Assembly (NCBI RefSeq): GCF_009931435.1
Contig: NZ_CP043414.1
Source: Escherichia coli
Lineage (GTDB): Bacteria > Pseudomonadota > Gammaproteobacteria > Enterobacterales > Enterobacteriaceae
Direction: 5' to 3' (one strand)
Length of the DNA stretch: 64,000 nucleotides
In this document: positions 13,561-64,000 of the stretch, in pieces
How positions within the stretch are numbered: position 1 is the stretch's first letter
Layout of the letters: each line of letters opens with the position of its first letter
Notes under the pieces: model-generated
What the model saw: only the letters and a program-made list of their open reading frames with translations
Told to the model about the DNA's origin: nothing
Databases searched by the model: none
Position numbers and translations under genes: made by a program

Positions 13561-13575
13561 GATTAGGGGCCTCCC

Positions 13576-14586: not shown

Positions 14587-14599
14587 TGTGAATGTGGGT

Positions 14600-17325: not shown

Positions 17326-17327
17326 AA

Positions 17328-17360
17328 TAGCTGCGGTTCAGAATGTTATATCCGCAGCTT
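17328..17360 (-). terminator. Hairpin (tagctgcgg...ccgcagct) downstream of yeiS, candidate terminator of sanA-yeiS
   Basis: 9-bp stem seen in sequence; the following U-tract on the minus strand is weak. Confidence 0.35.
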
Positions 17361-17410
17361 ATTGACTGAAGTAATAATTATTCTCAATAATTAACAGGGG
17401 AGGGACAATA

Positions 17411-18487
<1,077 letters not shown>

Positions 18488-18519
18488 TGATGCGACGTTT
18501 ATCAGTGTGTCAGACCTGA

Positions 18520-19446
<927 letters not shown>

Positions 19447-19505
19447 GGCGTTGCCTCATAATCATGTAATGGGATAACAGTTTACGAACCCGTTATGGCT
19501 TTATA

Positions 19506-19521
19506 TGTGATCTGAATCTCA
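19506..19521. promoter_or_regulatory. CRP-like site (TGTGAtctgaaTCtCA) in the cdd promoter region
   Basis: Motif seen in sequence; the cdd promoter is known to be CRP/CytR controlled. Exact site assignment is inference. Confidence 0.4.
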
Positions 19522-19575
19522 TTAATTGTGCAACGAATGAAACTTACATCAAAAATGCGCGACGCATCGCAAATT

Positions 19576-20702
<1,127 letters not shown>

Positions 20703-45886: not shown

Positions 45887-46348
45887 TTATTTCACTTCTT
45901 TAAAACCAGCGGCTTTCATCACCAGTTCCATTTGCGCCATAGTGATACCTTTTTTGGCATCTTCAGCAGAAACGTTGATACCTGAAATACCCTGCAGGGC
46001 TTTAAAATCAACTTTTTCCATATCGATAGTCACGTTTTCCTGAGCATAAGTATCGGTAAAGGTTAATTTTTCTTCAACGCCAGGGATGTTTTTATATTTG
46101 GCACTTAACGGCTCAAGTGTCTTGGCAGCATCTTCTTTGGTGGTTGCACCAATGGAAGCAAATTGAATTTTGGTTTCAGAAGATTGCTTAAGAACCTTGT
46201 CACCTTTGTAGACATAGGTAATAGCAATTTCAGTACCGTTCAGATTAGCGCTAAATTTCTTCGATTCTTCTTTGTCACCGCAGCCAGCAAGAGAGAAAAC
46301 CAGAACAGATGCAACAACAAGGGAAAACAGCTTATTGAAAGCCTTCAT
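45887..46348 (-). CDS. yehR: Lipoprotein YehR (DUF1307)
   Basis: Signal peptide plus lipobox MKAFNKLFSLVVASVLVFSLAGC. Confidence 0.85.
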   Translation of the reverse strand: MKAFNKLFSLVVASVLVFSLAGCGDKEESKKFSANLNGTEIAITYVYKGDKVLKQSSETKIQFASIGATTKEDAAKTLEPLSAKYKNIPGVEEKLTFTDTYAQENVTIDMEKVDFKALQGISGINVSAEDAKKGITMAQMELVMKAAGFKEVK

Positions 46349-46479
46349 GTAAAACTCCATTTTATTTAATCAAGGAACTGGTGACCACACCAGGGGCCAT
46401 ATAGGATATGCCTAATACCTTGGCGTGAGCAGTCCGGAACTGGAGTAGAACTCTTTGTAAAAAGCACTATTTGTTCTTG

Positions 46480-48471: not shown

Positions 48472-49604
48472 GACTGAAGATTCTCCGCAAGCCAGGTCGC
48501 CAGTTCGCCTGGCGTCATCGCGGCTATTTGTGCGCCGACATTTACCAGCGCCTGGGCTGTATCGCGGTCGTAGCAAGGTGTTGCGGTGCTATCGAGCGCT
48601 GCCAGTCCCAGCACTTTGATGCCGCTCTGGACACACTTTTTCACCTGATGCGTCAGCAATGATGATGAACCCCCTTCATAGAAATCGCTCACGAGGATAA
48701 TGACGCTTTTCGCTGGTTGTTCAATAAGTTGCCGACCATACTCCACGGCACTGGCGATATTGGTCCCGCCGCCCAGTTGTACTTTCATTAATAACTCTAC
48801 CGGATCAGCAACGTCTGCCGTGAGATCAACGACGCTGGTGTCAAAAGCGACCAGATGGGTGCGGATACCGGGTAACTGCCATAAACAGGCCGCCATCACC
48901 GCTGAGTGGATCACCGAATCGACCATTGATCCGCTTTGATCAACCAGTAACACCAGCTGCCATTGTTCGCTATGGCGTTTAATTCGGCTGTTAAAGCGGG
49001 GGGATTCGATATACAACTTGCCGTGTTGCGGGTGCCAGTGTTGCAGGTTGGCGCGCAGAGTACTTTTGAAATCGAAATTACGCGCCAGTGGAATAAATGA
49101 GCGGCGACGGCGATCGCGTACACCTGAAAAAGCCTGACGAACTTCCTTTGCCAGTCGCGCCATAATTTCTTCAACAACCTGGCGCACTATCCGGCGGGCG
49201 GCAGCCAGCACTTCGGGATTCATCAGATGTTTGGTGTGCAAAACGGCGCGTAGCAGGCTTTCAGAGGGCTGCATACGTTCCAGCACGTCGAGATTCGTCA
49301 CCACATCTTCAATGCCGTAGCGCAGTACGGCATCGCTTTCCAGCCGCTCAATCACCTGTTGCGGGAACAGCGTGTGAATACTGTTGATCCAATCAGGGGT
49401 GGTGAGATTTGAGCCACCTAATCCACCGGAGCGTTCACCACGCTGGAGCCGTTCAGGGTCGCGCCCGTACAGCCACTCCAGCGCGTGGTCTATCCGCCGG
49501 GCGTTGTCATCCAGCCCACAAAGCGTCGTTTCTGCCGCTTCGCCAAGAATTAATCGCCAGCGTTGTAGCTCACGAGTGGTCAGAAGATCGTTCAGTTCAG
49601 ACAT
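48468..49604 (-). CDS. yehP: YehP: von Willebrand factor A (vWA) domain protein
   Basis: 378-aa product from MSELNDLL; MIDAS motif DQSGSMVDS; overlaps yehM by 8 nt. Confidence 0.85.
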   Translation of the reverse strand: MSELNDLLTTRELQRWRLILGEAAETTLCGLDDNARRIDHALEWLYGRDPERLQRGERSGGLGGSNLTTPDWINSIHTLFPQQVIERLESDAVLRYGIEDVVTNLDVLERMQPSESLLRAVLHTKHLMNPEVLAAARRIVRQVVEEIMARLAKEVRQAFSGVRDRRRRSFIPLARNFDFKSTLRANLQHWHPQHGKLYIESPRFNSRIKRHSEQWQLVLLVDQSGSMVDSVIHSAVMAACLWQLPGIRTHLVAFDTSVVDLTADVADPVELLMKVQLGGGTNIASAVEYGRQLIEQPAKSVIILVSDFYEGGSSSLLTHQVKKCVQSGIKVLGLAALDSTATPCYDRDTAQALVNVGAQIAAMTPGELATWLAENLQS

Positions 49605-51876
49605 GGAAAACTCCCCAGTGTTGCAGTGATGCCAGTGCCTGCTGTTCGAGTTGTTGATGATGTGCAATGGCTTGCGGTGGGCAATGCAACGGCATTTGCA
49701 GCGCCGAAACGGGAAGCTGAGCGAGCTGGTAATGCTCAAGCACCTGATGCGCCAGCGTCCCGCGTTCTCGTGGCGGTAGCCAGGCCATCGCCGCGCGCAA
49801 ATCGGGCAGGGCGTTAATAAAATCGGCGTCACTCAGTTGATTCAAATGGCTGCTGAAACCGGCGATAAATGCAGGCTGACTGGCCAGTTGATGGCGGGCT
49901 AATGCCAGCAAACCGTGCAGCGCCTCGCCAGATTGTGCCGGGGATAATTGTGCCAGCATCGTCAGCGCCGCTTCGGCACTGGCGTTGGGATGTTCCAGAC
50001 GCATCAGCGCGCCAAGGGCCGCACCGCGATCCAGCGCTGGGGCATGAATCGCCTGACTGCGACGTTCCAGTAAGGCTACCGCCGCAGAAAGCGAAACGCC
50101 GGGTAAATTAACGCCGCTATTTAGATCGCGCAGGATATGGCAAAGCGCCTGCCAGCTATGCAGGTGAGCGTGAAACTCCTTCTCATCCGGCCTGCCGTTG
50201 GATTCACATAGCCACAGTGTGCGATCGATAGCCGCGTATAACGTCGTCTGTAATATCTGCGCGCCTTGCATACCGCTGATTTCATCGAGCTGCCACAAGG
50301 CGTAAAGCACTTCCAGCGCCTGGCCCATTTCGGCAAACTGATTTTCCTGGGCGATTAATAATGTGAGTTGTTCCAGTAATTGCTGACTGAAGGACGCCAG
50401 ACCCGCTAACGCTGCCTGGCTAAGACATGTGGTGATGCCGCTGATTCCACCCGCGTCCAGCATATCGGCTTCTAATTTATTGCGTGCGGCCTCCTGGAGT
50501 GTGGCACCAAAGCAGGCGGCTTCAATCAATGCCGCATGTTGGCTAAGTGGCTGGGTTAATGTCCAGCGTTCTTCACCGTTGCCCGCCAGCGTCAGTGTAC
50601 TTCCGTGCTGGCGCACAATGCCGGGAATCTCCAGTATTGCCAACCGATGTAGCACCTGACTTTGCGCCAGTCCATCGGGGGTAAAGCGATTTAAGGTAAG
50701 CTCCGCCGGAAGAGAGATTCCGGTACGTTCCAGTTCGCAGGTGACATCTTTTGGCAGAGGTGGCTGTGGCGTCGAGGGGGCAAGTTTACCGAATCCGTCA
50801 CCTGCTAATGTGTCTATCAACGTTACCAGTATCGGATCGGTATCGGGATGAATAACGCCGCGATAGCTCCACGGCAACGGCGCGTTCAGGGCTTCTTTGA
50901 TCAGCGAGCCTGCTATAGCATCCAGCCAGTCAGTGCGTAACGGTAGTGTATGACCGCGCAACTGTGCCAGTGCCATCGCATGCAGATGAGCGGCAGCCAT
51001 ATCCGCTGTTGAAGCAGGCAAGTGGTGCTGGCGCAAACGGGTAAGAACCGTTTTTAGTAGTTGTTCACCTGCCTGCTGCAAGCCCCACCGCCAGCACCAG
51101 TTTTGCCAGACCGGGGCAGGCATTCCTGAAAGGTATCCTGCCAGCACATCAAGGCGCTTTTCACTGTATGGCGTGAGATAGCAACCTGTAACGGCATCAT
51201 CCTGTGAGAGCAATTCTGGCTTGTTAATTTCTTGCGGGCATTCGCGCCACATTTTTGCAAGTGCCGGAGCGTGCCAGCCTCCGCAGACGACTAATACGTC
51301 GCCATTATTTTGCTGCATCGCCCATGCAATCCAGCGGGCCATAAAGGCTTCGCGCTGACGATTGAGTGCATCGCCGGAGGCGTCGCCCCGCAGTTGTGCA
51401 AAATAGTGCGCCAGTGCAGAGGGTAATATAGTTTGCTGGCTTTCATCTTCGAACAGGTGATCCCACAGAGTGTCGCTGTTATCCATACGAGTGGCACGCA
51501 GCAACAAAGCCTGGCTTTCCTCTTGCGTACCGGGTGACTCGTCCTCTTCTTCACTCTGCGCCCAGCAAGGCAAATCGATGAAGTAAGTTTGTGCCTGAAT
51601 ACGACGTGCGGCTTGTAGCGCCTGCCACTCCGGCGAAAATTCAGCAAATGGCGTCCAGGCACCACGCCCGGGGGCCGCACCGTCCTGATACTGGCAATAA
51701 CTGTAAATAGCTACCGGAAGCTGGTGGGCTAACAACAGTTCGTCTACCCGGTCATTAAAATCAGCCGGGCCTTCAATCAACACGTATCGTGGCCGCTGGC
51801 TTTCGATTAACGATTTCACCAGCCGGGCGCAGGCCGGACTATGATGCCGGATGCCGACAATTAACGGCTCGCTCAT
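49597..51876 (-). CDS. yehM: YehM: large protein of unknown function
   Basis: 759-aa product from MSEPLIVGIRHH; no recognisable catalytic motif by eye. Confidence 0.8.
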   Translation of the reverse strand: MSEPLIVGIRHHSPACARLVKSLIESQRPRYVLIEGPADFNDRVDELLLAHQLPVAIYSYCQYQDGAAPGRGAWTPFAEFSPEWQALQAARRIQAQTYFIDLPCWAQSEEEDESPGTQEESQALLLRATRMDNSDTLWDHLFEDESQQTILPSALAHYFAQLRGDASGDALNRQREAFMARWIAWAMQQNNGDVLVVCGGWHAPALAKMWRECPQEINKPELLSQDDAVTGCYLTPYSEKRLDVLAGYLSGMPAPVWQNWCWRWGLQQAGEQLLKTVLTRLRQHHLPASTADMAAAHLHAMALAQLRGHTLPLRTDWLDAIAGSLIKEALNAPLPWSYRGVIHPDTDPILVTLIDTLAGDGFGKLAPSTPQPPLPKDVTCELERTGISLPAELTLNRFTPDGLAQSQVLHRLAILEIPGIVRQHGSTLTLAGNGEERWTLTQPLSQHAALIEAACFGATLQEAARNKLEADMLDAGGISGITTCLSQAALAGLASFSQQLLEQLTLLIAQENQFAEMGQALEVLYALWQLDEISGMQGAQILQTTLYAAIDRTLWLCESNGRPDEKEFHAHLHSWQALCHILRDLNSGVNLPGVSLSAAVALLERRSQAIHAPALDRGAALGALMRLEHPNASAEAALTMLAQLSPAQSGEALHGLLALARHQLASQPAFIAGFSSHLNQLSDADFINALPDLRAAMAWLPPRERGTLAHQVLEHYQLAQLPVSALQMPLHCPPQAIAHHQQLEQQALASLQHWGVFHV

Positions 51877-51886
51877 GCATCTTTCC

Positions 51887-52975
51887 TCACGGCAGGCGGT
51901 GGCGAGCTTGATAATAAGCCTGCCAGTGAGCTTCTTTATGTGTAGCGACACGTTGTTCGAAGTAACGGCGCAGACGTGCGCGATCTTCTTCGTTATCTTT
52001 GACGATGGTTCCGGCAATACAGTCCACCAGGTCGGCTGGCTCCCCCGCGCGATTCGCTAAAAACCAGGCGCGGACGCCCACGGCGTGGGCCACGTTAACG
52101 GCTTCAGCGGTGGACATAATCGCTGTAAAGGTATCCATTGAGGTTTTCTTTTCGCCGTTGGCACGCAGATCGCGGAAGGTGCGGACCAGTAACTCCAGTA
52201 CCGCGTCAGGCACTTTATGCGGAATGCCACTATGGGCCAATAAACGCGCCGAAGCACTGGCGACCAGTTCCAGTTCCTGGGCGAAATCCATAATCGGAAA
52301 GACAGTTTCAAAATCGAATCGACGTTTTAGTGCCGCGCTCATTTCATTAACGCCGCGATCGCGGGTATTGGCAGTGGCAATAATATTAAAGCCTTCTCGC
52401 GCATAGAGCTGACTGGCTTCACCAGTGAGTTCCGGCACCGTCATAACCCTGTCAGAAAGCATACCTAACAGACAGTCTTGTACTTCCAGTGGTGTACGCG
52501 TTATCTCTTCAAAACGGACAATTTTGCCGTCGCGCATTCCCTGGTAGAGCGGGGCAGGGACCAGCGCTTCCGTTGACGGACCATGATTAATAAGCAGGGC
52601 GTAGTTCCAGCCGTACTTGATTTGATCTTCGGTGGTAGATGCGCCGCCCTGGATAGTTAACCCAGCATCGCCGCTAATAGCGGTTGCCAGTAATTCAGAC
52701 AGGAGCGATTTTGCGGTGCCTGGTTCCCCCACCAACATCAAACCGCGCCCGGTAGCAAGAGTGACTAACATGCGTTCGACAGCGGAGGGACTAATCACGA
52801 CTTTACGGCTGATATTTTGCGCGCTATCGCCAAGAATAAAAGAACGGGCCGCAGGCAAACTTAACTGCCAACCGGGCGGGCAAGGTGCGTGATCATTTTG
52901 TTTTAATTTTGCCAGTTCATCGGCGTATAACACAGCGGCAGGTGGACGCTGCAGATGATTATTCTGCGGTGACAT
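51887..52975 (-). CDS. yehL: YehL: MoxR-type AAA+ ATPase
   Basis: 362-aa product from MSPQNNHL; Walker A GEPGTAKS; first gene of the yehLMPQ operon. Confidence 0.85.
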   Translation of the reverse strand: MSPQNNHLQRPPAAVLYADELAKLKQNDHAPCPPGWQLSLPAARSFILGDSAQNISRKVVISPSAVERMLVTLATGRGLMLVGEPGTAKSLLSELLATAISGDAGLTIQGGASTTEDQIKYGWNYALLINHGPSTEALVPAPLYQGMRDGKIVRFEEITRTPLEVQDCLLGMLSDRVMTVPELTGEASQLYAREGFNIIATANTRDRGVNEMSAALKRRFDFETVFPIMDFAQELELVASASARLLAHSGIPHKVPDAVLELLVRTFRDLRANGEKKTSMDTFTAIMSTAEAVNVAHAVGVRAWFLANRAGEPADLVDCIAGTIVKDNEEDRARLRRYFEQRVATHKEAHWQAYYQARHRLP

Positions 52976-53086
52976 ATATTCATCCCTGAAATGTATTAAT
53001 GAAATAAAAGATATTTTACGCGCAATAAATGTTTGGCGCATTAGTTGTTTGAGCGGAAAATATCTGGAAAGCAGATCACAGTAAAT

Positions 53087-53169
53087 AAAAAAACCTGCTG
53101 GTGAGGCAGGTTCTTTTATTTACTACTTTCAGGCCTAACACCACGGCCTGTGCAACATCGTGTTCCAAC
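53087..53169 (-). ncRNA. orzO: Predicted antitoxin sRNA (OrzO-like), about 83 nt
   Basis: Minus-strand -10 TATAAT at 53176-53181 and -35 TTGCAA at 53199-53204; intrinsic terminator hairpin plus U7 at 53087-53111; 5' region (53151-53169) is near-complementary to the zorO 5' UTR (53317-53335). Boundaries inferred. Confidence 0.4.
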
Positions 53170-53175
53170 GAACGA

Positions 53176-53226
53176 ATTATAACCACCGCTGGACCCCGTT
53201 GCAATTAAGATAATGAGATTTATAAT
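53176..53226. promoter_or_regulatory. Back-to-back divergent sigma70 promoters sharing a palindromic -35 TTGCAA (53199-53204): rightward -10 TATAAT 53221-53226 (zorO), leftward -10 53176-53181 (orzO)
   Basis: Spacers of 16 and 17 bp seen directly; predicted zorO transcription start near 53234 gives a 174-nt leader. Confidence 0.5.
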
Positions 53227-53407
53227 CCTGACAGTTGGGAGGTTGCGCCGGATCGAACCAATTTCAAGTCCTGGCTACCGGACGGGTGGTGCTGCAGGTG
53301 GTGCCCTGATCCGGAGTGCAACATCGTGGTCCAACATACGTAAACCAGTATCGACAGGCAGTGTAAGGGTAAGGTGCTGGTGTTGCGCTCCTTAATAAGG
53401 AGAGCGG

Positions 53408-53497
53408 ATGGACACGCTGACACAAAAGTTAACCGTGCTCATTGCCGTACTGGAGTTATTAGTGGCTCTGTTACGGTTGATTGATTTGTTGAAGTAA
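53408..53497 (+). CDS. zorO: Type I toxin, 29-aa hydrophobic peptide MDTLTQKLTVLIAVLELLVALLRLIDLLK (ZorO-like, Ldr-related)
   Basis: Hand-translated small ORF with a single transmembrane helix, long structured leader and intrinsic terminator; matches my recollection of ZorO. Confidence 0.7.
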   Translation: MDTLTQKLTVLIAVLELLVALLRLIDLLK

Positions 53498-53518
53498 CGG
53501 GCAAATTGAAACGCATCT

Positions 53519-53550
53519 AAGGGGGAAAATACCGCTTCCCCCTTTAATAA
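53519..53550 (+). terminator. Intrinsic terminator of zorO (aagggggaa-aataccgc-ttccccctt + T-rich)
   Basis: 9-bp G/C-rich stem seen in sequence. Confidence 0.6.
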
Positions 53551-53683
53551 AATGATTACTGTTTTTAATAATTCATCATATAACTCATTTTTATTTATAA
53601 ATTCATCGATTTTATATTCAACGCACCATTTGACCGGGATGTAAATATTTATGGTGGGCTATTGGCAAAAAATATCTGGAAAG

Positions 53684-53779
53684 TAGATCGCAGAAAATAA
53701 AAGAACCTGCTGGTGAGGCAGGTTCTTTTATTTACTACAGTGACGCTAACTTGCTGATTGTGCAACATTTCGTACCAAC
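53684..53779 (-). ncRNA. orzP: Predicted antitoxin sRNA, second copy (OrzP-like)
   Basis: Same architecture as copy 1: -10 at 53786-53791, shared -35 at 53809-53814, terminator hairpin 53694-53714; pairing region 53762-53779 matches the zorP leader 53928-53945. Confidence 0.4.
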
Positions 53780-53785
53780 GAATAA

Positions 53786-53836
53786 ATTATAACCATATCC
53801 ACACTCCATTGCAATTCAGTGAATGAGATTTATAAT
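53786..53836. promoter_or_regulatory. Divergent promoter pair of copy 2 (shared -35 TTGCAA 53809-53814; -10 elements 53831-53836 and 53786-53791)
   Basis: Identical geometry to copy 1. Confidence 0.5.
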
Positions 53837-54017
53837 CCTGCCCGTTGGGAGGTTGTGCCGGATCGGACCAATTTTAAGTCCTGGCTGCCGGACGGGTGGT
53901 GCCGCAGGCGGTGCCCTGATCCGGAGAGCAACGTTTCGTACCAACATACGTAAACCAGTATCGACAGGCAGTGTAAGGGTAAGGTGCTGGTGTTGCGCTC
54001 CTTAATAAGGAGAGCGG

Positions 54018-54107
54018 ATGGACACGCTGACACAAAAGTTAACCGTGCTCATTGCTGTACTGGAGCTATTAGTGGCTCTGTTACGGTTGATTGATTTGTT
54101 GAAGTAA
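54018..54107 (+). CDS. zorP: Type I toxin, second copy; identical 29-aa peptide with synonymous changes (ZorP-like)
   Basis: Hand-translated; 174-nt leader from the predicted transcription start near 53844. Confidence 0.7.
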   Translation: MDTLTQKLTVLIAVLELLVALLRLIDLLK

Positions 54108-54128
54108 CGGGCAAATTGAAACGCATCT

Positions 54129-54160
54129 AAGGGGGAATACCGTTTCCCCCTTTAATAAAG
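54129..54160. terminator. Bidirectional hairpin terminator (aagggggaa...ttccccctt) between zorP and convergent yehK
   Basis: Stem-loop seen in sequence, flanked by T-rich tracts on both strands. Confidence 0.55.
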
Positions 54161-54481
54161 CTATTTTTCTATTTGTTGGATGAATATATTTTGTAGTTCA
54201 CGATTAAAAATTGCTATTACAGTTTTAGGTGATTCACCTCGTAATTTACGCTCATCAATAAATTCATCTCTTATATAAATCAACGCATCATTTATTAGCG
54301 GGTCGACATCTTCTCGATCACGTTGATGAAATGTTGGATGTAGCCGGAATCGCTCCAACCGGTAGACGGAACCAGTAAATAATTCAGAGCGTTTATGGAC
54401 CTCAAGTCTGAAGGAAAACGGATCTTCAGGTACAGGGTCCTCATAATCGTAAATAGCGACCAGCTCTTTTTGCACGATCAT
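54161..54481 (-). CDS. yehK: Small hypothetical protein (106 aa), probably YehK
   Basis: ORF at the position expected for yehK between yehL and yehI; identity by synteny and size only. Confidence 0.55.
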   Translation of the reverse strand: MIVQKELVAIYDYEDPVPEDPFSFRLEVHKRSELFTGSVYRLERFRLHPTFHQRDREDVDPLINDALIYIRDEFIDERKLRGESPKTVIAIFNRELQNIFIQQIEK

Positions 54482-54540
54482 CGCTTTCCCGTTGGTAAGT
54501 CGTGTTGAAAACGGGCAGTCGCATCACTGCCCGTTGTGTT

Positions 54541-57500
54541 TTAATGGAAAATGACGTCGGGTGCGCTTAACGCCTCACTCAAATCAAACACATCAAGTGC
54601 GGCAAAAGTGACAGATTTATTGTCACGGTACACTCGAAGAGAACGGAAGCTCATTAGCGCTTTGCTATCAGCACTGTAGTGGTTAAAACCGGGTGAAAAC
54701 TTAAGGACCAGCCGATACTCGCCCAGGTCATAGACACATGCGTCCTCAAAACCTGACTCCCAGCCTTTGTATCGCATTCCCATAAGTTGCCCAACGGTTG
54801 CGGATTTACCTTCCCAGCGAGTCAGGCTGTTACTGGCTGACTCGTCAGGTGTGAGCAGCACTGTGCGCCGCATCAACTGGCGAAAAGGCGGCATAATTTC
54901 GTAATCGGCAAAAACCTGTGCAAATTCACTGCGCATTTCTGCTGTCATTTCTAACGGGTGGGCAATGCCAATCAGATCATCCGCAGGCAGGTCAATTGGC
55001 TCATCTTGTGCGTTGCAGAATTCCCCCTCTGCGGCCACACGAAAGGCGTTGAGTAAACGACGCGGTTCATTTGCCGGATAAACCGCCCATATTAATCGCT
55101 GAGTAACCAGGCGGGTAAAGGGATGATTAACAAACAGAGAATGAAAATCTGCCAGCGACCAGCGTCGGGTGGTGCGCAGGGCAGTTTCAAGACGTGGGAG
55201 CAGGTTTTTGCTCACCTGAGTGGCATCTTTTTTTAGCCCTTTTAGTCGGGCCAGTGCCTCGGGTGCTTTCAGTTGATCGTCATCGGCGCGCAACCGGGGA
55301 ACGCTTTTCTGGCGAACGTTTTGCTGATCAAAGATAACCGGGTTGAGGTTTTCATCGAAGCGAACGGTAAACTGCCGGGGTCCAAAATCAAATATCAACG
55401 CCTGCGGATCATCCAGGCCCAGTGTTGGGACTAATCTGTCCGCTAACTCTTCCTGGCTTAGTCCACGATTTTCTGCGACCACCTGAAGAAATTCCGCCGC
55501 GTTATCACGTAAGGGACGGGATTTCGCCCGTTGCGATATATGATGCAGCTGTATCAGCGCCATATCATTATTCATCAGGGTAAGTATGTTCAGGCCACTG
55601 ACGGCACGGGCAGATTTGCCTTCCTGTGGCCAGGCGAGGATCTGTGTTGTCAGATCCCGAGCCGTGCTTTCGTCACCAAAGAGACTTAACGCCAAAAAAG
55701 CCCAGTTGTCTTTTGCGGGGGCGCCAGCCTGTTGCCAGGCGGTGAAGAGATCCCTGGCAAAAGCGGCCAGCGTTTGTGGCTGGCAGAACGTTTTCAGTTG
55801 TTCCAGCCCACAATAAAAACGTCCGCCCTGGGTAAAGCGCAGCATTTCGCCGATAATTTCCAGAGCATCATCAGTAACAGGTTGATTATTCGTGATAATT
55901 CTCGGTCTGGACCACATTGTCGGATGCCAGAAATCAGGGGCTTTGGGAATGCGTGCCGGGTAAATGTCCATTGGACCCTGTTTAAGTAATTGCTCTAGGG
56001 AAGGCCATACATCTGTACGCTGCCAACGATTGGCTACAGTTTGTAGCAATTCGCCATGTCCTTGTTCGTAAAGTAAACGCAGGGCAAGTAATGCAGCTTC
56101 GCTATTATCGCTGGATTTGGTGTAGACAAGAGGGATAAGTGCCGTAGCCGTATGCTCCGGCCATTGTAAAATCCACTGGCGAGCCAGATTACGCTGGCCC
56201 GCAAAACGATGCCAGACGCGGGCAACGGGCAGAGCCAGTTCTGTTGCGCCAAAATGAATCAGCAGCGGAAATATCTCTTTGGGATGTCGGGCAAAGGCGG
56301 TGATTAATCCGGGCAAAGCATCGGTACCCAGGACACTTAACAGATATTCTACCCCGGTGTAATGAAAATCAGCCGCGACAATTTGTTGCCAGCACGATAC
56401 CGCCATTTCGCGCGGCATCTGCGCGATAAGGTACAGATTCCAAATCCCCCAACGCTTTTCATTACCATAGTAAAATCCGTGCTGAAAAGTTCGCCACCCT
56501 CCCATCAACGCAATGCTATCTTGTGCCAGTAATGATTTGGTGGCTTCTTCCCGGTACTGTTTAGATTTGGCCTGATGCGCGTGATAAGTATGCAAAAGTC
56601 CTATTGATGTGTATTCTTGCAGTTGCTGAGTATCAAAGGCATCCAGCTGTCCATTAAGAAGACGCTTATTAAATTCCAGGCTATGAACGTCAAAACCTAA
56701 TTCCCGCAAGAAGGTATCCGCCCCTCTGTTAGCAAGACGTTCGTCAAAAGACATGGCGCTAAAATGGTCAATTGCAGTTTGCTGTTCCGGCGTCCAGTGT
56801 TTATTCGGCGACTTGTACGCTTGCGGTACAAGCGTAAGTTCAGGTAGCGAAAAGTGAGTTATGGAAGTCTTTTTCCTGCCACGCCATGGTGGTGAAACGA
56901 GGATTTCAGGCAGACTGCTGTTATTGGTGCTATCAATAACCGGTTTTGGCGAAGCCGATAAATAACTATTCACCACTGCCCGGGCTTGAGTACTTAACGA
57001 CGGGATCACCTCTTCTGCCAGTTGTGGCTGCGATGCCATCAGCGTTTGTAACAGCGTATGCCAGTATTCATCACGTGCTTTTTGCTGTGCAGGCAGCTTT
57101 TTGTCTTCGATGATAGGATAACCAGGGCGCGCAGGGGGGGCTTTTAACGCCAGCAGTTCTGCCAGTGCGGCGAGCGTCGCATGGGGGAAGTTTTTACTGT
57201 ATTTAGCCACACGTTGCAGGCTGGGTTTGTTTTTATCAGCCACCAGTAGCAAGGTGCGGATGACTTGCGGATGGTTAATTTGTACCAGCAGACTGCCGCA
57301 ATCTTCTTTATGTGCATACATCGCGAGGCGCGGAACGGCTGCCAGTCCTTGTTCGCGCAAAAGGGCAGCGCAGGCCGCGTAGCCGAAGTGGTTTTCATGC
57401 GACATGTAGCTGGCTTCGCGATCGCTAAATATATCCTGACTCCAGTAGTGATCGAGTTTTCTGACCGCGCTGGGGTCATTAGCAACAACTTTTAACCACT

Positions 57501-58191
57501 CCTTAGAATGATAATGAGTCCGTGGGCATTCAAGGCCTATCAACTCATTGGCGATTTCTGGTTTCTCCGGGAGGATGAGTGCAATAAAAGGACGGCGAAC
57601 TTTGGGTATTCCTGGCAGTGCGGCAATGAGTTTGTCGGCGCAACGCTGCCAGCAGCTTTCCTCTGCCAGAGAGAGATGCTTACGCAGTCGGAGATCGAAT
57701 TCGTTATAGGTTTCTGAGCGATAACCATAGCCATAGCCATAGTCCTCCTTCTGATACTGCAATGTTACTACCAGAGGATCACTCTCATAACACCGTACAA
57801 TAAACTGGCGTGCAATCACCACCTCAGTCGCATATTCCAGCCCCTCTTGTTGGACGATTTCGTCGAGTAACTGTTGGCTATCATTTTGCGCGATACAGGC
57901 TAGCGCCGCCATTGTCCGGGCCGGAATTGAGGGTTTGTGCTCGCCGATCAAGTTGATGGCTTGCGTAATGGCCGACTGCCACTCCAGTGAAAAATTTTCA
58001 TAACGCCAGACAATGTTTTTTTTCTTCTCAGCAATGTGTAGCAATTTATCACCCAGTGTCTGGATGAGGCTTTCAGTGATAACAGGCACCGGTTCGCCCG
58101 GCCAATTGCGATGGCTGAGTGGTGTTTTGCCTTTTTTATATTTCAGTTCCAGTTGGGCGTTATCCGCCAGCCACGGTAATTCCTTGTCCAT
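54541..58191 (-). CDS. yehI: Large DUF4132-family protein YehI (about 1216 aa)
   Basis: Long uninterrupted ORF; C-terminal half is paralogous to the two upstream genes. Confidence 0.85.
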   Translation of the reverse strand: MDKELPWLADNAQLELKYKKGKTPLSHRNWPGEPVPVITESLIQTLGDKLLHIAEKKKNIVWRYENFSLEWQSAITQAINLIGEHKPSIPARTMAALACIAQNDSQQLLDEIVQQEGLEYATEVVIARQFIVRCYESDPLVVTLQYQKEDYGYGYGYRSETYNEFDLRLRKHLSLAEESCWQRCADKLIAALPGIPKVRRPFIALILPEKPEIANELIGLECPRTHYHSKEWLKVVANDPSAVRKLDHYWSQDIFSDREASYMSHENHFGYAACAALLREQGLAAVPRLAMYAHKEDCGSLLVQINHPQVIRTLLLVADKNKPSLQRVAKYSKNFPHATLAALAELLALKAPPARPGYPIIEDKKLPAQQKARDEYWHTLLQTLMASQPQLAEEVIPSLSTQARAVVNSYLSASPKPVIDSTNNSSLPEILVSPPWRGRKKTSITHFSLPELTLVPQAYKSPNKHWTPEQQTAIDHFSAMSFDERLANRGADTFLRELGFDVHSLEFNKRLLNGQLDAFDTQQLQEYTSIGLLHTYHAHQAKSKQYREEATKSLLAQDSIALMGGWRTFQHGFYYGNEKRWGIWNLYLIAQMPREMAVSCWQQIVAADFHYTGVEYLLSVLGTDALPGLITAFARHPKEIFPLLIHFGATELALPVARVWHRFAGQRNLARQWILQWPEHTATALIPLVYTKSSDNSEAALLALRLLYEQGHGELLQTVANRWQRTDVWPSLEQLLKQGPMDIYPARIPKAPDFWHPTMWSRPRIITNNQPVTDDALEIIGEMLRFTQGGRFYCGLEQLKTFCQPQTLAAFARDLFTAWQQAGAPAKDNWAFLALSLFGDESTARDLTTQILAWPQEGKSARAVSGLNILTLMNNDMALIQLHHISQRAKSRPLRDNAAEFLQVVAENRGLSQEELADRLVPTLGLDDPQALIFDFGPRQFTVRFDENLNPVIFDQQNVRQKSVPRLRADDDQLKAPEALARLKGLKKDATQVSKNLLPRLETALRTTRRWSLADFHSLFVNHPFTRLVTQRLIWAVYPANEPRRLLNAFRVAAEGEFCNAQDEPIDLPADDLIGIAHPLEMTAEMRSEFAQVFADYEIMPPFRQLMRRTVLLTPDESASNSLTRWEGKSATVGQLMGMRYKGWESGFEDACVYDLGEYRLVLKFSPGFNHYSADSKALMSFRSLRVYRDNKSVTFAALDVFDLSEALSAPDVIFH

Positions 58192-58200
58192 GCTCATTCC

Positions 58201-61200
58201 TTATTCAAACAGGGCTTCGATGTCGTTAATTAACTCGCTAGCGGTGATGTCATCGAGTGCGGAGAACTGCGCTTCCTGTGTTGAATCAATCCCCCAGCCA
58301 TAGCTTTCTGCTTTGCCTTCCCATAGCCACAGCTTGCTTAAGAGTTGCTCGGCACTGAGTTCGGCTGGCGACATACCAACTGCAAATCCTTCATCGATTT
58401 CCATGATTAATGACCAGCGGCCCAGAGGTTTGATCATCCAGCCGATCCAGCCACCGTCCTGCGGTTCACCACGCATCCAGCCTTTATTCGCCAGCCCCAT
58501 TACCCGACCGCTCGGGCATTTTCTGCCTGCCCAGCGGGTCAATTCGCTGGCATTGCGCTCGGTTTCTGTCAGGGCGTAACTGTTACGGTCGAGCTGGCGG
58601 AACGGCGGTAGCAGTTCGTAGTCGGCAAAAAGCTGACCAAAGGCGGCAGCATCCGTGGGTGATATTTCCAGAACGTGAGGAATGCCAACAGAGATATCGC
58701 CTTCCGGCAGGGTGAAAAGATCATCGTCAGCGGTGCTGTAGCTGTTATCTTCCGCCACACGGAAGCACGCCAGTAACTGGTTGTCTGCGCTATAAATGCC
58801 CCAAATCAGACGGCGGGTTAAGTGGCAGACCAGCGGATGCTCAACCAGAAAGAGCTGAAAGTTTTCTGGCGACCAGCGGCGGCGCAGGCACATGGCGGAT
58901 TCCAGCCTTGCCACCTGCTGGGCGGCAACGGTACGCGCATCTTTTTTCAGCAGTTTGTAGCGGTTAACTGCATCGTTCGCTTGAGTTTCATCATCGCTTT
59001 TGTTCGGTTTAGGCAAGTCTTTCAGGCGGCTGCCGGAAGCATCACGCACAAACGGTTTTAAGGTTTCATCAAAGCTGACGGTGAACTGCCGTGGCCCGAA
59101 ATCCAGCAGCAGCGAACCGTTATCATCCAGACCGAGATCCGGTGCTAACCGGTCTTCAAGCTCCGCCACCGTGAGTTCGCGGCTCTCGGCAATGTCGGCA
59201 ATTTTTTCTTTTGCCCGCTCCTGTAATGCTTTGAATTTCAGTTTCTGGGCGATGCCGTTAAGCTGCATCAGGGCGATATCACTACCGATAGCAGCGAGAA
59301 TATCCAGCCCGACGGTGGCGCGTTTATGCTGGGATTCACCAGGCCAGGCGCGAATCAAAGGCGTCAGTTTGCGGGCGGTATCATCGTTGCCGAGAACACC
59401 TAACGCAGTGAACGCCCAGCTTTCTTTCGACGGTGCGCCAGCGGTCTGCCAGGCGGTAAACAGATCCCAGGCAAATTCAGCCAGTGAGTCGGCGGTACAG
59501 GCATCTTTCACCTGCAATAATCCCGCATACAGAGCCTCTTCCTGAGGGAAGCGGAGCATTTCACCGAGGTGGAGGAGGGCGTTATCTGGCAGTGATTGGG
59601 CGTTTGCTTTTAATACCGGGCGTGTCCAGAGCGATGGCTGATAAAAGGCCGGAAGTGTCGGGATTTTAGTCGGGTGATTATCTAAGGGATCGAGCGCAAG
59701 TAGAGCGTTCACCGCATCGGTTACTTCCGGCTGGTTATAACGCTGGGCGATTTCTTGCAGTAATGACGGATAACCACTTTCAATCAACATACGTAAGGCG
59801 GCGCGGGCGTTATCCTGGGCTTCACCAGCTTTGCCGAGTGCCGCAGGCAACAGGCCGATAATGGCATGTTCCGGATATTTCAGCAGCCAAGTGCGGGCGT
59901 CTTGTCGTAGAGTTTTGAGTTTGTTAAAGGCGCGGGCGACGGCAGGAGCCAGTTCCGTTGCGGCAAAATAATTAGCAACCGCAAAACCTTCTTGAGGGTA
60001 GCGTGAAAACGAGTGTAGAAAACCACTCATACCTGCCAGTCGCAAATAAAGCATGACAGGTTTTACCGCGGTATGCGGCTCTTTGCTGAGAAACTCCCAT
60101 AGTTTAATCGCTTTTTGCATAGGTAAAAAGGGAAGTGAGTTGAGATGCCACTCCCCCTGATACGGTGCATGGTGGGCTTTAAACATTTGGATGAGTGTAG
60201 CGAAGTCCTCACGTTCCCATGCGTCAATTGCCGAGTCAGAAGCGCCGATATATTTATATGTGTCAAAATCCCAGCGGCGATACCCCAGCGAGTAAAGGAA
60301 ATCTTTAGCACCTTCACCTGGCTTATGCGATTCCCAGTCCCAATGAGTTTGAAACTCTTTTGCTTCTGTGTCGGTTATTGTGCATATGGATTTGAGTTTG
60401 AGCGGTGCTAAATCCAACACCGGAATCGTCGATTTTTTCTTTTTCGAAAGCCAGGGAGGTAAGACTAATACGGCTGGCAGTAGAGCGGCGCAGGCATGGT
60501 TTGACGGTTGTATCAGTTGTTGCTGGCATGATTTCAGCACTTCAACTGCGGCTGTCGAGAGCCAGGGAGTGACCTGTTCTGCCAGTGCCGGTTGCGAGAT
60601 AAGCATCGTCATTAGCATAATGCGCCAACTATTCTCTTCTTTTTGCGCAAGAAGTTCCGCCAGTGCTGCCAGTGCTGCGTGTGGGAACGCAGCGCAGGCT
60701 TTCGTCATTCGATCGTGACAGCGTTTAGTAAGCCCGGCTACACGTATAAGCAGTGTTAATGCGAACGGATGATTGATATGACGCAACACATCGGCGCAGT
60801 AGTCACTTGCGGCATAGGGAGCAAATCGGGGCAGGGCTGCAACACCTTGCTCCTGTAATACGGTGGCTGACAATATCGCACCACAATAGTAATCATCAAA
60901 AATGGCATATGGCTCGTGATATTTTTCTAATGAGGCAAGAATGTGCTCATCAGTCGCCACTATTTTTAGCCACTCAAGCGAGGGTAATTTTTTTTTCCCC
61001 AGTAGACGCTGGGCAATTTCATGTGCAATTTCTGGTTTTTCGGGTAATAACAAAGCAATTAATGGTTGCCGCCATTCTGGAATATGTGGAATTGCGGCAA
61101 TAAGTTTTTGTGCACATTTTTGCCAGAGAGACTCTTCCGCCAGTGATAAATGTTTCCGTAGGCGTAATTCAAAACTGGAATATTGCTGCAGGTTATCAGG

Positions 61201-61989
61201 TGCAATACCAGACGGCAGAATAATAATGGTATTATTCGCATAATCCCATTCAATATCAATCTGTTGAAGATGTATTACTACATCAGTAGCATATTCCAGG
61301 CCACCTTCCTGAACGAGCTGATCCATAACATCCTCACGCTCTTTATATCTCGTGCACTTCAGTTCAAGTGCCGTGAGTACAGCCATTACTGGTGATGGTA
61401 ACTGTGTTGTTTTCAGGCAGTCGATCTGACTGAGCGCCTGGGAGATGGCGTTTTGCCATTCTAAAGAACAGGCGCTGAAATCAAATGTGGCTGTTTTATT
61501 ATCCCGTTGCGACACGCTACAGGCTAAGCGACGTAACTGGGTCAAGTTGTCTGCTTGCTGAACAGGAACTCCGGGAAAGCGGCGATGGCTTAACGTGGTG
61601 TGTACAACTTCGGGCGGAAAAACGACAGCAATATCTTTCGCCAGCCACGGTAAAACATCATCTGTATTTTTGTCAGCCACACGGGCTTCTGCTACGCAAA
61701 AGGGTTGTTCCTGAATAATGGTGGATAAGGCCGCTACCTTGAGAGAATCCGTTACCGTTTGGGAAGGTTGCAAAGAATTATCCTTCGCTTGCCCCACATA
61801 CCCCTTCTTCACCTTCTCCGCAATCAGCCTCAGTTCCGCTTTTTCCGCCGCCGCAGCATCAGCAAAGCTTTTTACCTGGCTTTGCCCGTTGGTACTGACT
61901 TTGCCCCAACTAATATGCAGCTCGTTTCCCTGTTGCTCCACTGCCCAGAATTTATGTGATTTTTCGTCCTGATAAATATAGGTTTTCAT
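58201..61989 (-). CDS. molR: MolR-like protein: N-terminal WGR domain plus DUF4132 (1262 aa, intact)
   Basis: N-terminus MKTYIYQDEKSHKFWAVEQQGNELHISWGKV is a WGR domain; paralogous to yehI and to the downstream partial gene. Confidence 0.85.
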   Translation of the reverse strand: MKTYIYQDEKSHKFWAVEQQGNELHISWGKVSTNGQSQVKSFADAAAAEKAELRLIAEKVKKGYVGQAKDNSLQPSQTVTDSLKVAALSTIIQEQPFCVAEARVADKNTDDVLPWLAKDIAVVFPPEVVHTTLSHRRFPGVPVQQADNLTQLRRLACSVSQRDNKTATFDFSACSLEWQNAISQALSQIDCLKTTQLPSPVMAVLTALELKCTRYKEREDVMDQLVQEGGLEYATDVVIHLQQIDIEWDYANNTIIILPSGIAPDNLQQYSSFELRLRKHLSLAEESLWQKCAQKLIAAIPHIPEWRQPLIALLLPEKPEIAHEIAQRLLGKKKLPSLEWLKIVATDEHILASLEKYHEPYAIFDDYYCGAILSATVLQEQGVAALPRFAPYAASDYCADVLRHINHPFALTLLIRVAGLTKRCHDRMTKACAAFPHAALAALAELLAQKEENSWRIMLMTMLISQPALAEQVTPWLSTAAVEVLKSCQQQLIQPSNHACAALLPAVLVLPPWLSKKKKSTIPVLDLAPLKLKSICTITDTEAKEFQTHWDWESHKPGEGAKDFLYSLGYRRWDFDTYKYIGASDSAIDAWEREDFATLIQMFKAHHAPYQGEWHLNSLPFLPMQKAIKLWEFLSKEPHTAVKPVMLYLRLAGMSGFLHSFSRYPQEGFAVANYFAATELAPAVARAFNKLKTLRQDARTWLLKYPEHAIIGLLPAALGKAGEAQDNARAALRMLIESGYPSLLQEIAQRYNQPEVTDAVNALLALDPLDNHPTKIPTLPAFYQPSLWTRPVLKANAQSLPDNALLHLGEMLRFPQEEALYAGLLQVKDACTADSLAEFAWDLFTAWQTAGAPSKESWAFTALGVLGNDDTARKLTPLIRAWPGESQHKRATVGLDILAAIGSDIALMQLNGIAQKLKFKALQERAKEKIADIAESRELTVAELEDRLAPDLGLDDNGSLLLDFGPRQFTVSFDETLKPFVRDASGSRLKDLPKPNKSDDETQANDAVNRYKLLKKDARTVAAQQVARLESAMCLRRRWSPENFQLFLVEHPLVCHLTRRLIWGIYSADNQLLACFRVAEDNSYSTADDDLFTLPEGDISVGIPHVLEISPTDAAAFGQLFADYELLPPFRQLDRNSYALTETERNASELTRWAGRKCPSGRVMGLANKGWMRGEPQDGGWIGWMIKPLGRWSLIMEIDEGFAVGMSPAELSAEQLLSKLWLWEGKAESYGWGIDSTQEAQFSALDDITASELINDIEALFE

Positions 61990-62001
61990 TGCTAATTCCT
62001 T

Positions 62002-64000
62002 TTAATTAAACAGTGATTCAATGTCGTTAATCAGCTCGCTGGCGGTGATGTCGTCGAGTACGGAGAAAGTGGGTGAGGATTGCTTACCATAGCGATCATA
62101 AGGGGCGGTGATTTTTACGCTTTCGACAGGCAGCAGGTCGCTATACCCCGTTTCGCCATAAATTAATGAAAAAGGTTCTGTTTCAAGTTCGAGAGCGCCA
62201 TAAGGGGTAGATTTGCGCATCGCATAGACGCTGCCGCTTTCTTCCAGACGTTGCCAGCCTCGGCGCTCTAGCCCGACAATACGTCCGGCCTGACAGAGCT
62301 GTCCTTGCCAGCGTGTCAGGTCGTGGGTATTCCGTTCATTATCAGCAAGACGATAACTACCACGATCGAGCTGTTGGAAGGGGGGAAGCAGTTCGTAATC
62401 AGCGTAAATTTGCCTGAATGCAGCGGCAGATTCAGGGGGGATTTCCAGCACATGCGGTATACCGATGTTTCCTGCTGGCAGCGTGAATAACTCATCCTGC
62501 ATATCGCTGTAAGTGCTGTCTTCTGCGACCCGGAAGCAGGCAATCAGCGTGTTTTCCTCAGTATATACTCCCCATAACAGCCGTCGGGTTAAGTGACGTA
62601 CCAGCGGATGCTCCACCAGAAACAGGCGGAACTGTTCTGCCGTCCAGCGTCTGCGCTGGCACATAGCCTGCTCCAGACGATCAATCTGCTGACTGGCAAT
62701 GGCGCGCACATCTTTCTTCAATTGTTTGAAGAGGTTAACGGCGTCAGTTGCCAGTGTTTTATCATCGCTCTGATTTGGTTTGGGTAAATCTTTCAGGACT
62801 TTGCCGTTTGCATCGCGCACTACAGGTTTTAAGGTTTCGTCAAAACCAACGGTGAATTGACGTGGGCCGAAATCCAGTATCAGCGAGCCACTGCTATCAA
62901 GCCCTAAATCTGAAGCCAGGCGGTCTTCCAGTTCAGCCATTGTCAGTCCGCGATTTTCGGCGACCATATTGATTTTGTCGCGGGCGTGTTCCTGCAATGC
63001 TTTGAATTTAATCTTTTGTGCAATGCCATTAAGCAGCATCAGCGCAATATCGCTACCGATACTGGCTAACACATCCAGCCCAGAAACCGCACGTTTATGC
63101 TGGGATTCACCCGGCCAGACCCGGATAAGCGGGGTTAGTTTACGCGCGGTGTCGTCATTGCCTAAAATCCCCAGCGAGGTAAATGCCCAGTTTTCTTTTG
63201 CGGGCGCGCCAGATTCCATCCATGCCGTGTAGAGATCCCAGCCAAAGTCAGCCAGTGATTCCCGGGTGAAGATTTCTCTAATGATATCCAGTCCAGCGTA
63301 GGCGGTAATGTCGCGAGGGAAGCTCAACATAGTGCCCAGGTGGCGCATAGCGTCATCGGACAGAGGCAGATTGTTACTTTTAAGCCGTGGTCTGCGCCAT
63401 AAGGTGAACTGATAAAAGCCGGGCAGTGGGGCGATTTTTGCGGGATATTCTTCCAGCGGATCGCTATCGAACAATGTTGCCAGCGCAGCTAAAACATCTG
63501 GTTGATTATATCCTTGGGCAATTTCCTCAATCGTTTCTCGCTGGTTTAAATTCACCAGCAGGCGAAGCGCCTGGCGGGCACAATCACGATCTTTTCCTTG
63601 TTTGCCCAGTGCCACAGGAAGTAGCCCGGCGGTGGCATGGCGTGGGTAATCAGTTAGCCAGTTTCGCGTATCTTCATAAGACATTTTTTTCTGTAATTGT
63701 TGCGCCATCGGTAAGGCCAGGTCACTGACACCGAGGAAAAAGGGGAAGAAGCACAGACGTCGTGGATCACGTTGCAGGCAGGTCATAAATGAAGGTATGG
63801 CGGCGCTACCAAAAATTGCCAGAATATTTCCCTCATCAGAGTAGTTATCTTCTTTGACTATCTGGTTAAGAAAAGAAATGGCCTGTTGACCAGGCAGGTA
63901 ACAGAGGGCAATGAGATTCCAGCTTTTGTATGCATTGTTATGGTATTGCACAAATTCAGCATTGAGTGCTGGAAAATCGAAGCGTAGCAGGGCATCAACG
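62002..64000 (-). CDS. Third DUF4132/MolR-family paralog, 5'-truncated by the window edge
   Basis: Frame stays open to position 64000 (the track start is an internal GTG); C-terminal about 450 aa are about 70% identical by eye to the molR-like gene. Confidence 0.8.
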   Translation of the reverse strand, partial: VDALLRFDFPALNAEFVQYHNNAYKSWNLIALCYLPGQQAISFLNQIVKEDNYSDEGNILAIFGSAAIPSFMTCLQRDPRRLCFFPFFLGVSDLALPMAQQLQKKMSYEDTRNWLTDYPRHATAGLLPVALGKQGKDRDCARQALRLLVNLNQRETIEEIAQGYNQPDVLAALATLFDSDPLEEYPAKIAPLPGFYQFTLWRRPRLKSNNLPLSDDAMRHLGTMLSFPRDITAYAGLDIIREIFTRESLADFGWDLYTAWMESGAPAKENWAFTSLGILGNDDTARKLTPLIRVWPGESQHKRAVSGLDVLASIGSDIALMLLNGIAQKIKFKALQEHARDKINMVAENRGLTMAELEDRLASDLGLDSSGSLILDFGPRQFTVGFDETLKPVVRDANGKVLKDLPKPNQSDDKTLATDAVNLFKQLKKDVRAIASQQIDRLEQAMCQRRRWTAEQFRLFLVEHPLVRHLTRRLLWGVYTEENTLIACFRVAEDSTYSDMQDELFTLPAGNIGIPHVLEIPPESAAAFRQIYADYELLPPFQQLDRGSYRLADNERNTHDLTRWQGQLCQAGRIVGLERRGWQRLEESGSVYAMRKSTPYGALELETEPFSLIYGETGYSDLLPVESVKITAPYDRYGKQSSPTFSVLDDITASELINDIESLFN

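Follow-up and report, generated by a model that had tools for sequence, protein, structure and literature searches.

Tandem giant DUF4132 paralogs next to a MoxR-vWA operon in Escherichia coli: possible interchangeable subunits of one ATPase machine

Introduction

What is the role of the giant genes located between metG and yehL in Escherichia coli, and what does it mean that a genome can carry three of them in a row? Some of the largest E. coli genes without an assigned function are yehI, molR and yehLMPQ, and molR has stood unexplained on the list of the SOS regulon for 25 years. We studied this question in a stretch of 64,000 nucleotides (nt) of E. coli (assembly GCF_009931435.1, contig NZ_CP043414.1), referred to here as the window. 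It contains an array of three head-to-tail giant open reading frames (ORFs), namely yehI, an intact ortholog of molR (the middle gene) and a paralog cut by the window end (the third gene), followed by the genes for a MoxR-type AAA+ ATPase (YehL), a DUF5682 protein (YehM), a vWA protein (YehP) and a SWIM zinc-finger protein (YehQ). Gene order, the pattern of constraint and the predicted fold lead us to propose, with moderate confidence, that the MolR/YehI paralogs would be interchangeable subunits of a MoxR-vWA machine that act as adaptors or sensors and not as enzymes.

Results

The giant genes are paralogs with a common C-terminal module

A first-pass annotation of the window, made from its letters alone, had described three consecutive giant genes on one strand. 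This arrangement was borne out by the ORF list: the genes are on the minus strand, with intergenic gaps of 3 nt (yehI/middle) and 12 nt (middle/third), and the third frame stays open over its 665 visible codons. In BLASTP comparisons, the yehI and middle proteins showed 37% identity over 1190 amino acids (aa; E = 0), the middle protein and the visible part of the third 54% over 676 aa (E = 0), and the yehI and third proteins 36% (E = 5e-140). These alignments, with similarity far above chance, confirmed that the three genes are true paralogs, and yehI is the most diverged of them, as had been supposed (36-37% vs 54% for the middle/third pair). An earlier estimate of about 70% identity between the C-terminal halves of the two distal paralogs holds for a 300-aa core (68-78%, middle aa 837-1136), but the value over the visible C-terminal half is 54%, and it falls to 25-33% toward the central region, where the visible overlap starts on its N-terminal side. 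Long sequence blocks shared between genes were also found. The LRLRKHLSLAEES block is common to yehI and the middle gene, the corresponding part of the third gene being outside the window, and its counterpart in the closest full-length third-gene ortholog is more diverged (QRLCHHLSLASEDEWQRC). The C-terminal FS-LDDITASELINDIE-LF block is common to the middle and third genes, and yehI retains just its Ser-Glu core. Ser-Glu at the C-terminus, S1251/E1252 of the middle gene, is nearly invariant.

The full-length plan is seen in the middle gene, which shows a WGR domain, a helical region of ~550 aa and a conserved C-terminal module of ~600 aa. The N-terminal WGR domain recognized in the first reading was matched by Pfam (aa 7-68, E 1e-14) and by PDB profiles of 2ra8 (E 1e-20) and of the WGR domain of PARP3, and DUF4132 was matched at aa 986-1171 (E 6.7e-51). 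DUF4132 was also matched by the last 288 aa of all 15 proteins scanned (E ≤ 0.001), namely those of the middle gene, yehI, the third gene of strain RMDEC465 and 12 distant relatives. RMDEC465 is the closest proxy for the window (96.6% over the region) and contains yehK, yehI, two further DUF4132 genes (1262 and 1265 aa) and then metG. Its 1265-aa gene (16004-19801 of its extracted locus) starts with a WGR domain, adjoins metG and shows 91% aa identity to the third gene of the window, for which it was used as the full-length proxy. In K-12 (strain TG1), yehI is accompanied by a single frameshifted DUF4132 pseudogene, molR, and then metG, in agreement with the pseudogene status given at the outset. 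The window and K-12 YehI proteins are 83% identical in aa. The K-12 molR pseudogene is orthologous to the middle gene (82% identity over aa 1-949 and 94% over aa 966-1262 by tblastn), its identity to the third gene being only 40-57%.

MolR-like genes head a conserved five-component operon

A search with the full middle protein was uninformative, returning near-identical E. coli entries only, and was replaced by an exhaustive search of 1.84 billion representatives with a family cut-off of E ≤ 0.001. This search revealed 5946 family clusters, in which the conserved portion is the C-terminal ~600 aa, far larger than the 180-aa Pfam domain; a WGR-first architecture was observed in 96 of the 150 best family representatives, which follow the full-length plan of the middle gene. 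Gene order was surveyed in one genome per species with a single peptide pattern, resulting in 73 closest-relative loci, 57 of them with enough flanking DNA. Homologs of yehL, yehM, yehP and yehQ were located directly after the WGR-DUF4132 gene and on the same strand in 47 of these 57 MolR-like loci, the conserved order being [WGR-DUF4132]n-YehL(MoxR)-YehM(DUF5682)-YehP(vWA)-YehQ(SWIM). The operon was identified in Enterobacterales (Klebsiella, Erwinia, Edaphovirga, Serratia), in Burkholderiales (Burkholderia, Cupriavidus, Variovorax, Paracidovorax, Comamonas, Massilia), in other gamma- and betaproteobacterial orders (Stenotrophomonas, Tahibacter, Steroidobacter, Iodobacter, Chitinibacter) and in distant groups, with Trichlorobacter, Mycolicibacterium, Hyalangium and one Holophagales genome; its range reaches from Enterobacterales as far as Myxococcota, Mycolicibacterium and Holophagales. 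The MoxR/vWA neighbourhood, to which the first-pass annotation had attached meaning, is thus a conserved operon across several phyla and no coincidence.

The number of genes at the head of the operon varies. Most loci have a single WGR-DUF4132 gene; three were found in Klebsiella spallanzanii, two in Chitinibacter and two in a Rhodanobacteraceae genome, and Massilia aquatica, M. rubra and M. frigida carry tandem arrays of 4-8 such genes, the array of M. aquatica being directly upstream of yehLMPQ homologs. The same Massilia genomes also hold solitary WGR-DUF4132 copies elsewhere, without the operon.

Regarding the partner proteins, the Walker A motif of YehL (GEPGTAKS), the MIDAS motif of YehP (DQSGS) and the SWIM-type motifs of YehQ are intact, and YehL gave weak NCBIfam matches to GvpN/MadB ATPases. 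Sequence profiles revealed no catalytic domain in YehM (DUF5682 only) or in YehQ (two SWIM-type motifs). Effector domains fused to family members were also looked for, and only a histidine kinase on one representative was found. In this representative, of 1776 aa, a complete sensor histidine kinase precedes the WGR domain; it is probably joined by a gene-call fusion, and possibly by a genuine one.

The predicted structures show no enzyme fold

For aa 640-1262 of the middle protein, which form its C-terminal module, the AlphaFold model had a mean predicted local distance difference test score (pLDDT) of 95.5 and a predicted template modelling score of 0.89. It comprises a stretch of ~300 aa with paired helices, a small unit of beta structure, one long helix and a region of mixed alpha/beta character whose last element is a C-terminal helix. 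In the model of the N-terminal half (pLDDT 85.7), a PARP-like WGR domain and a helical solenoid are present together with a disordered linker at aa 70-106. Structural matches of the models corresponded to HEAT/ARM/TOG repeats and to one TBP-like YugN protein. Neither the confident models nor the fold and profile searches revealed an enzyme fold or catalytic domain in either half of the middle protein, and the MolR/YehI proteins are, as modelled, large and non-enzymatic.

These data bear on the historical view of MolR as a molybdate regulator, or on a modern variant of it in which the MoxR-vWA machine would mature a metal cofactor enzyme with MolR/YehI as assembly scaffold. Databases still use the gene name and describe the product as 'molybdate metabolism regulator', and MoxR-vWA pairs such as CoxD/CoxE, NorQ/NorD and CbbQ/CbbO serve in the maturation or activation of enzymes, among them metalloenzymes. 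We nevertheless consider this explanation very improbable. No helix-turn-helix or other regulator domain was found, the conserved operon contains no metalloenzyme gene, and K-12, in which molybdate regulation was worked out, has a frameshifted molR pseudogene. Furthermore, the molybdenum genes of Deinococcus were unchanged when its DUF4132/WGR genes were induced (PMC8533742).

A candidate SOS box and Escherichia-specific insertions

In both RMDEC465 and K-12, the identical sequence AACTGGATAAAATTACAGGG closely follows the metG terminator and precedes the first start codon of the array by 7 nt. A review lists molR among the E. coli genes with a known SOS box, from Fernandez de Henestrosa et al. 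2000 and Courcelle et al. 2001 (PMC6590174). In Deinococcus radiodurans, the DUF4132 gene DRA0166 and the WGR gene DR2173 are strongly upregulated when DdrO, the repressor of the radiation response, is depleted (PMC8533742). Matches to CTG-N10-CAG / TTCTGGGAAGTGGAGCAGG in other taxa were rejected as LexA boxes, as they correspond to the coding FWEVEQ motif of WGR.

The window contains a 610-bp tandem duplication between yehK and yehL with two OrzO-P antitoxin RNAs (Rfam RF02083), which is the published zorO/orzO-zorP/orzP type I toxin-antitoxin pair. The duplication is absent from K-12, where the yehK/yehL spacer is only 0.3 kb, and no homolog of yehK was found in any of 71 non-Escherichia loci. 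Because they are absent from the operon elsewhere, yehK and zor/orz appear to be a later, Escherichia-specific insertion that separated yehL from the DUF4132 gene of the ancestral operon. The toxin-antitoxin neighbour, taken at first as a hint of conflict, therefore adds nothing to that reading. In addition, the 59 nt that separate the yehI stop from the start of yehK contain a GC-rich 10-bp hairpin, which is followed by TTTTC on the minus strand and may act as a weak terminator ending the paralog transcript.

Copy number varies among E. coli genomes

In a set of 5426 complete E. coli genomes, the whole locus was matched in 5417, always between metG and yehL. The yehLMPQ genes of the window, and likewise the region 46000-64000 as a whole, show ~93% DNA identity to mainstream E. 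coli, and since only 8 of the 5426 RefSeq genomes labelled E. coli reach at least 99%, the window represents a divergent Escherichia lineage. The third gene, scored as present at ≥80% of its length, was full-length in 1629 genomes (30%), and ~500 further genomes matched it only in the first ~200 nt. Of nine annotated three-gene loci that were inspected, seven are fully intact; at the O55:H7 and O157:H7 loci, two copies are broken. The guinea-fowl isolate E. coli GF4-3 has a row of at least four DUF4132 paralogs, of which one is split (locus 7384-18786), so that between 2 and at least 4 copies occur in genomes labelled E. coli. An intact triplet, regarded as unusual in the first-pass annotation, is ordinary in E. 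coli given its frequency and the seven intact loci, and K-12 is therefore the reduced state.

The 5' ends of the genes suggest a route for these changes. Within one genome, the middle and third genes show 82-88% identity over their WGR-coding first 195 nt, the whole proteins being ~44% identical. In K-12 molR, the first 195 nt (13624-13818 of its locus) are of the third-gene type (91%), and the remainder is of the middle type, a junction compatible with a deletion through recombination of the WGR-coding segments and later decay. From these sequences we infer that the two-gene state may arise by recombination between WGR-coding 5' ends. In the KFW motif of the K-12 molR WGR domain, the conserved Trp is changed to Arg (TTCAGG).

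Constraint is uneven along the paralogs

The ratios of nonsynonymous to synonymous substitution rates (dN/dS) were calculated between orthologs by the Nei-Gojobori method, gene-wide and in sliding windows. Gene-wide values were 0.13-0.33 for the three giant genes, in comparison with 0.02-0.09 for yehL and yehP, ~0.1 for yehM and 0.004-0.03 for metG. The C-terminal core (aa ~800-1100) of every paralog showed values of 0.00-0.08, and the N-terminal half and the central stretch values of 0.2-0.6, the highest windowed value being 0.60. No region of the three paralogs exceeded 1 in pairwise sliding windows. In the central stretch (~aa 450-700 in all three genes, hereafter the cassette), dN between alleles was 0.2-0.9, with dS mostly saturated (≥0.8). 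Constraint was found to be very uneven along the three genes.

One explanation of this pattern is that the paralogs are redundant, weakly selected duplicates that drift to loss, their variation reflecting relaxed constraint and recombination. Gene-wide dN/dS of 0.13-0.33, in comparison with 0.004-0.13 over metG, yehL, yehP and yehM, would agree with it, as would the pseudogenes in K-12, O55:H7 and O157:H7 and the lack of the third gene in 70% of the complete E. coli genomes. In addition, a study of sequence type 131 (ST131) reported that a successful sublineage has a blaCTX-M-15 resistance transposon inserted in what it calls the three-gene 'DUF4132 region' (PMC9334617). However, frames of more than 1200 codons remain intact in the 7/9 sampled three-gene loci, the C-terminal core of every paralog is under strong purifying selection, and both architecture and operon persist across phyla. 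Altogether, we regard drift to loss as an unlikely account of the array.

The central cassette exists in divergent allele classes

The yehI cassette of the window compared with that of K-12 showed dN values of 0.46-0.93 with saturated dS, and the middle-gene cassette compared with other E. coli alleles dN values of 0.4-0.7 with dS ≥ 0.86, mostly saturated. Since dS is saturated, dN/dS between classes is not estimable; between alleles of the same class, it was 0.26-0.37. The yehI cassette type of the window was found in only 48 of the 5426 genomes, the flanks alone aligning elsewhere. The middle-gene type was present in 649 (≥80% of query), with 95-99% nt identity in 625 (12%), and the genomes beyond those 649 carry unrelated cassettes in this gene. 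Because an identity of 95-99% exceeds the ~93% of the surrounding core genes, the middle-gene cassette suggests exchange between lineages. A lower-confidence stretch of the structural model (~aa 500-560) falls inside this cassette, the remainder being modelled more confidently. The description of the paralogs as diversifying thus stands as regards uneven constraint and deeply divergent cassette classes, but not as regards positive selection, which is not demonstrated because dN/dS never exceeds ~0.6 and is 0.26-0.37 within a class; the data show weak constraint together with old, recombining allele classes.

Such classes raise the possibility of an anti-phage or conflict system, in which the paralogs would be diversified sensors with cassettes that recognise invader molecules, and YehLMPQ would transduce or execute the response. 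A multiplied first gene with discrete, deeply divergent cassette classes is in line with this view, as are the apparent spread of one middle-gene cassette between lineages and the frequent pseudogenisation and copy-number change, and SOS control would suit prophage induction or phage attack. Nevertheless, no PADLOC-DB 2.0 model matched any of eight proteins (the three paralogs, YehL, YehM, YehP, YehQ and YehK), and the fold and domain searches gave no nuclease, protease, TIR or other effector. A tblastn search with the conserved C-terminal module gave no homolog in 50,697 phage records, and only 31 of 72,556 plasmid records had one. Furthermore, this is a core locus at a fixed position between metG and yehL in nearly all genomes surveyed, and dN/dS is below 1 throughout. 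The initial hint of a conflict system is weakened by these searches, and we retain it as a rival that we consider improbable.

Matches to PHROG families (phrog_20839, 36602, 28101 and 36295; up to 1599 bits) cover YehK, YehI and the middle paralog (54161-61989 of the window) and the third paralog of RMDEC465. A phage origin on this basis was rejected, as no phage record contains a homolog, and these PHROGs probably derive from host DNA swept into prophage predictions.

Table 1. Positions of the giant paralogs, their domains and neighbouring features in the window
Feature	Position	Strand	Description and basis
yehI	54541-58197	minus	1218 aa; paralog without WGR; helical solenoid and DUF4132 module
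Middle paralog (molR ortholog, intact)	58201-61989	minus	1262 aa; WGR and DUF4132
Third paralog, C-terminal 665 codons and stop	62002-64000 (runs off the window)	minus	Open frame to the edge; N-terminus and promoter beyond the window
WGR domain, middle paralog aa 7-68	61786-61971	minus	
Central hypervariable cassette of yehI, ~aa 420-680	56158-56940	minus	dN/dS and cassette census
Central hypervariable cassette of middle paralog, ~aa 500-700	59890-60492	minus	dN/dS and cassette census
Conserved C-terminal module of middle paralog, aa 640-1262	58204-60072	minus	Helical repeats and alpha/beta region, with Pfam DUF4132 at 58477-59034
Hairpin, yehI/yehK gap	54510-54535		10 bp, GC-rich
yehK	54161-54481	minus	Small gene between yehI and the MoxR operon, Escherichia only; ORF, named yehK in the annotation of relatives
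Tandem duplication, yehK/yehL spacer	53057-54174		610 bp; zor/orz
OrzO-P antitoxin RNAs	53087-53162; 53699-53772	minus	Rfam RF02083
yehL, MoxR-type AAA+ ATPase	51887-52975	minus	99% identity to annotated YehL; Walker A GEPGTAKS
yehM, DUF5682 protein	49597-51876	minus	Pfam PF18934, E 5e-96 on the RMDEC465 ortholog (98% identical)
yehP, vWA protein with MIDAS motif	48468-49604	minus	DQSGS at aa 222; annotated as vWA domain protein
yehQ, SWIM zinc-finger protein	46480-48471	minus	Two CxC...CxH motifs, aa 70-81 and 166-177; weak Pfam SWIM match, E 0.0036

Discussion

The reading that we favour, in which the MolR/YehI paralogs serve as exchangeable adaptors or sensors of a MoxR-vWA machine, can be outlined as follows. 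Each paralog consists of an optional PARP-type WGR domain, which may bind nucleic-acid ends, a helical solenoid, a swappable cassette and the conserved C-terminal module of ~600 aa with DUF4132, and would dock via this module onto one shared YehL/YehP remodelling machine. The WGR domain and the variable cassette would set the target, either DNA ends or nucleoprotein, and extra paralogs would give one machine several specificities. In Escherichia, the array would be switched on by DNA damage via the LexA box ahead of its first gene, and copy number (2, 3 or at least 4) would shift by recombination between the near-identical WGR-coding 5' ends.

Several observations weigh against this proposal. 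The WGR domain is absent from yehI. The window contains no canonical LexA box (CTGT-N8-ACAG), the array promoter being beyond position 64000, and no LexA box was found upstream of the operon in other genera, the box being seen only in Escherichia. The operon survey recovered its loci through one peptide pattern, and its count therefore describes the MolR-like branch, not all DUF4132 proteins. Co-transcription of the array with yehLMPQ in Escherichia is doubtful because the hairpin, yehK and the zor/orz insertion separate them. Finally, there are strains with three intact giant paralogs and yet a frameshifted or stop-containing yehL, yehM or yehP (two loci: 2219-5586; 1081-1775), which argues against a strict co-dependence of the paralogs and yehLMPQ; decay of the ATPase operon and decay of the paralogs are not coupled.

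A broader claim would be that WGR-DUF4132 and YehLMPQ constitute an undescribed, widespread nucleic-acid surveillance system, for DNA damage or defence, with swappable sensors, a shared ATPase engine and SOS wiring in Escherichia. We put it forward tentatively, considering it rather unlikely as a whole. Should DNA-end or foreign-nucleoprotein sensing prove true, a bacterial PARP-type WGR domain would be coupled to a MoxR-vWA machine, a combination undescribed so far. If the array is dispensable instead, the locus would still be useful as an insertion hot spot, as with the blaCTX-M-15 transposon of ST131, and as a typing marker.

Tandem paralogy itself is not new, because thousands of genomes carry these genes in their annotation and the three-gene region had been noticed before. 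The searchable literature holds no description of the five-gene operon, of the cassette polymorphism or of a function, and no functional study of DUF4132, of yehI, of yehM/yehQ/DUF5682 or of the combination of WGR, MoxR and SWIM was found in it. The giant genes are now placed in a five-component operon that extends across phyla, the variable parts of which are the copy number and the central cassette. K-12 is a poor model for its study because molR is broken and the third copy is lacking there; a vague 'y-gene' puzzle becomes experimentally approachable in natural isolates with intact arrays.

Comparison with known systems places the locus at the meeting point of several of them. Like the uncharacterised SOS (LexA) regulon genes of E. 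coli, such as ybfE, ydjM, yebG and dinD, molR is listed with a known SOS box, and the box precedes the first array gene in relatives of the window. Unlike those genes, molR belongs to a multi-gene paralog array with copy-number variation, and its box lies outside the window and is seen in Escherichia only. The middle gene retains, in the form SWGKVG, the W-G-[RK] motif of the WGR domains of PARP1/2/3 and of the Bacteroides fragilis WGR protein 2ra8. In contrast to the PARP proteins, the middle gene is devoid of the PARP catalytic and helical regulatory domains and has its WGR fused to a solenoid and DUF4132.

As in the MoxR/vWA systems RavA-ViaA, CbbQ-CbbO, NorQ-NorD and CoxD-CoxE, a MoxR-type ATPase with Walker A is encoded beside a MIDAS vWA protein, and this arrangement is a conserved operon. 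YehL has reportedly been treated as a separate MoxR subfamily, by Snider and Houry in 2006. In comparison with those systems, the operon of the window adds WGR-DUF4132, DUF5682 and SWIM partners and encodes no client enzyme, and its first partner is multiplied and polymorphic. The closest relatives are the yehI and molR genes of K-12 (YehI, MolR; PF13569 and PF05406), which are direct orthologs at the same position between metG and yehK/yehL; with respect to them, the window has an intact molR, an extra paralog between molR and metG, and yehI and molR cassettes that belong to other allele classes.

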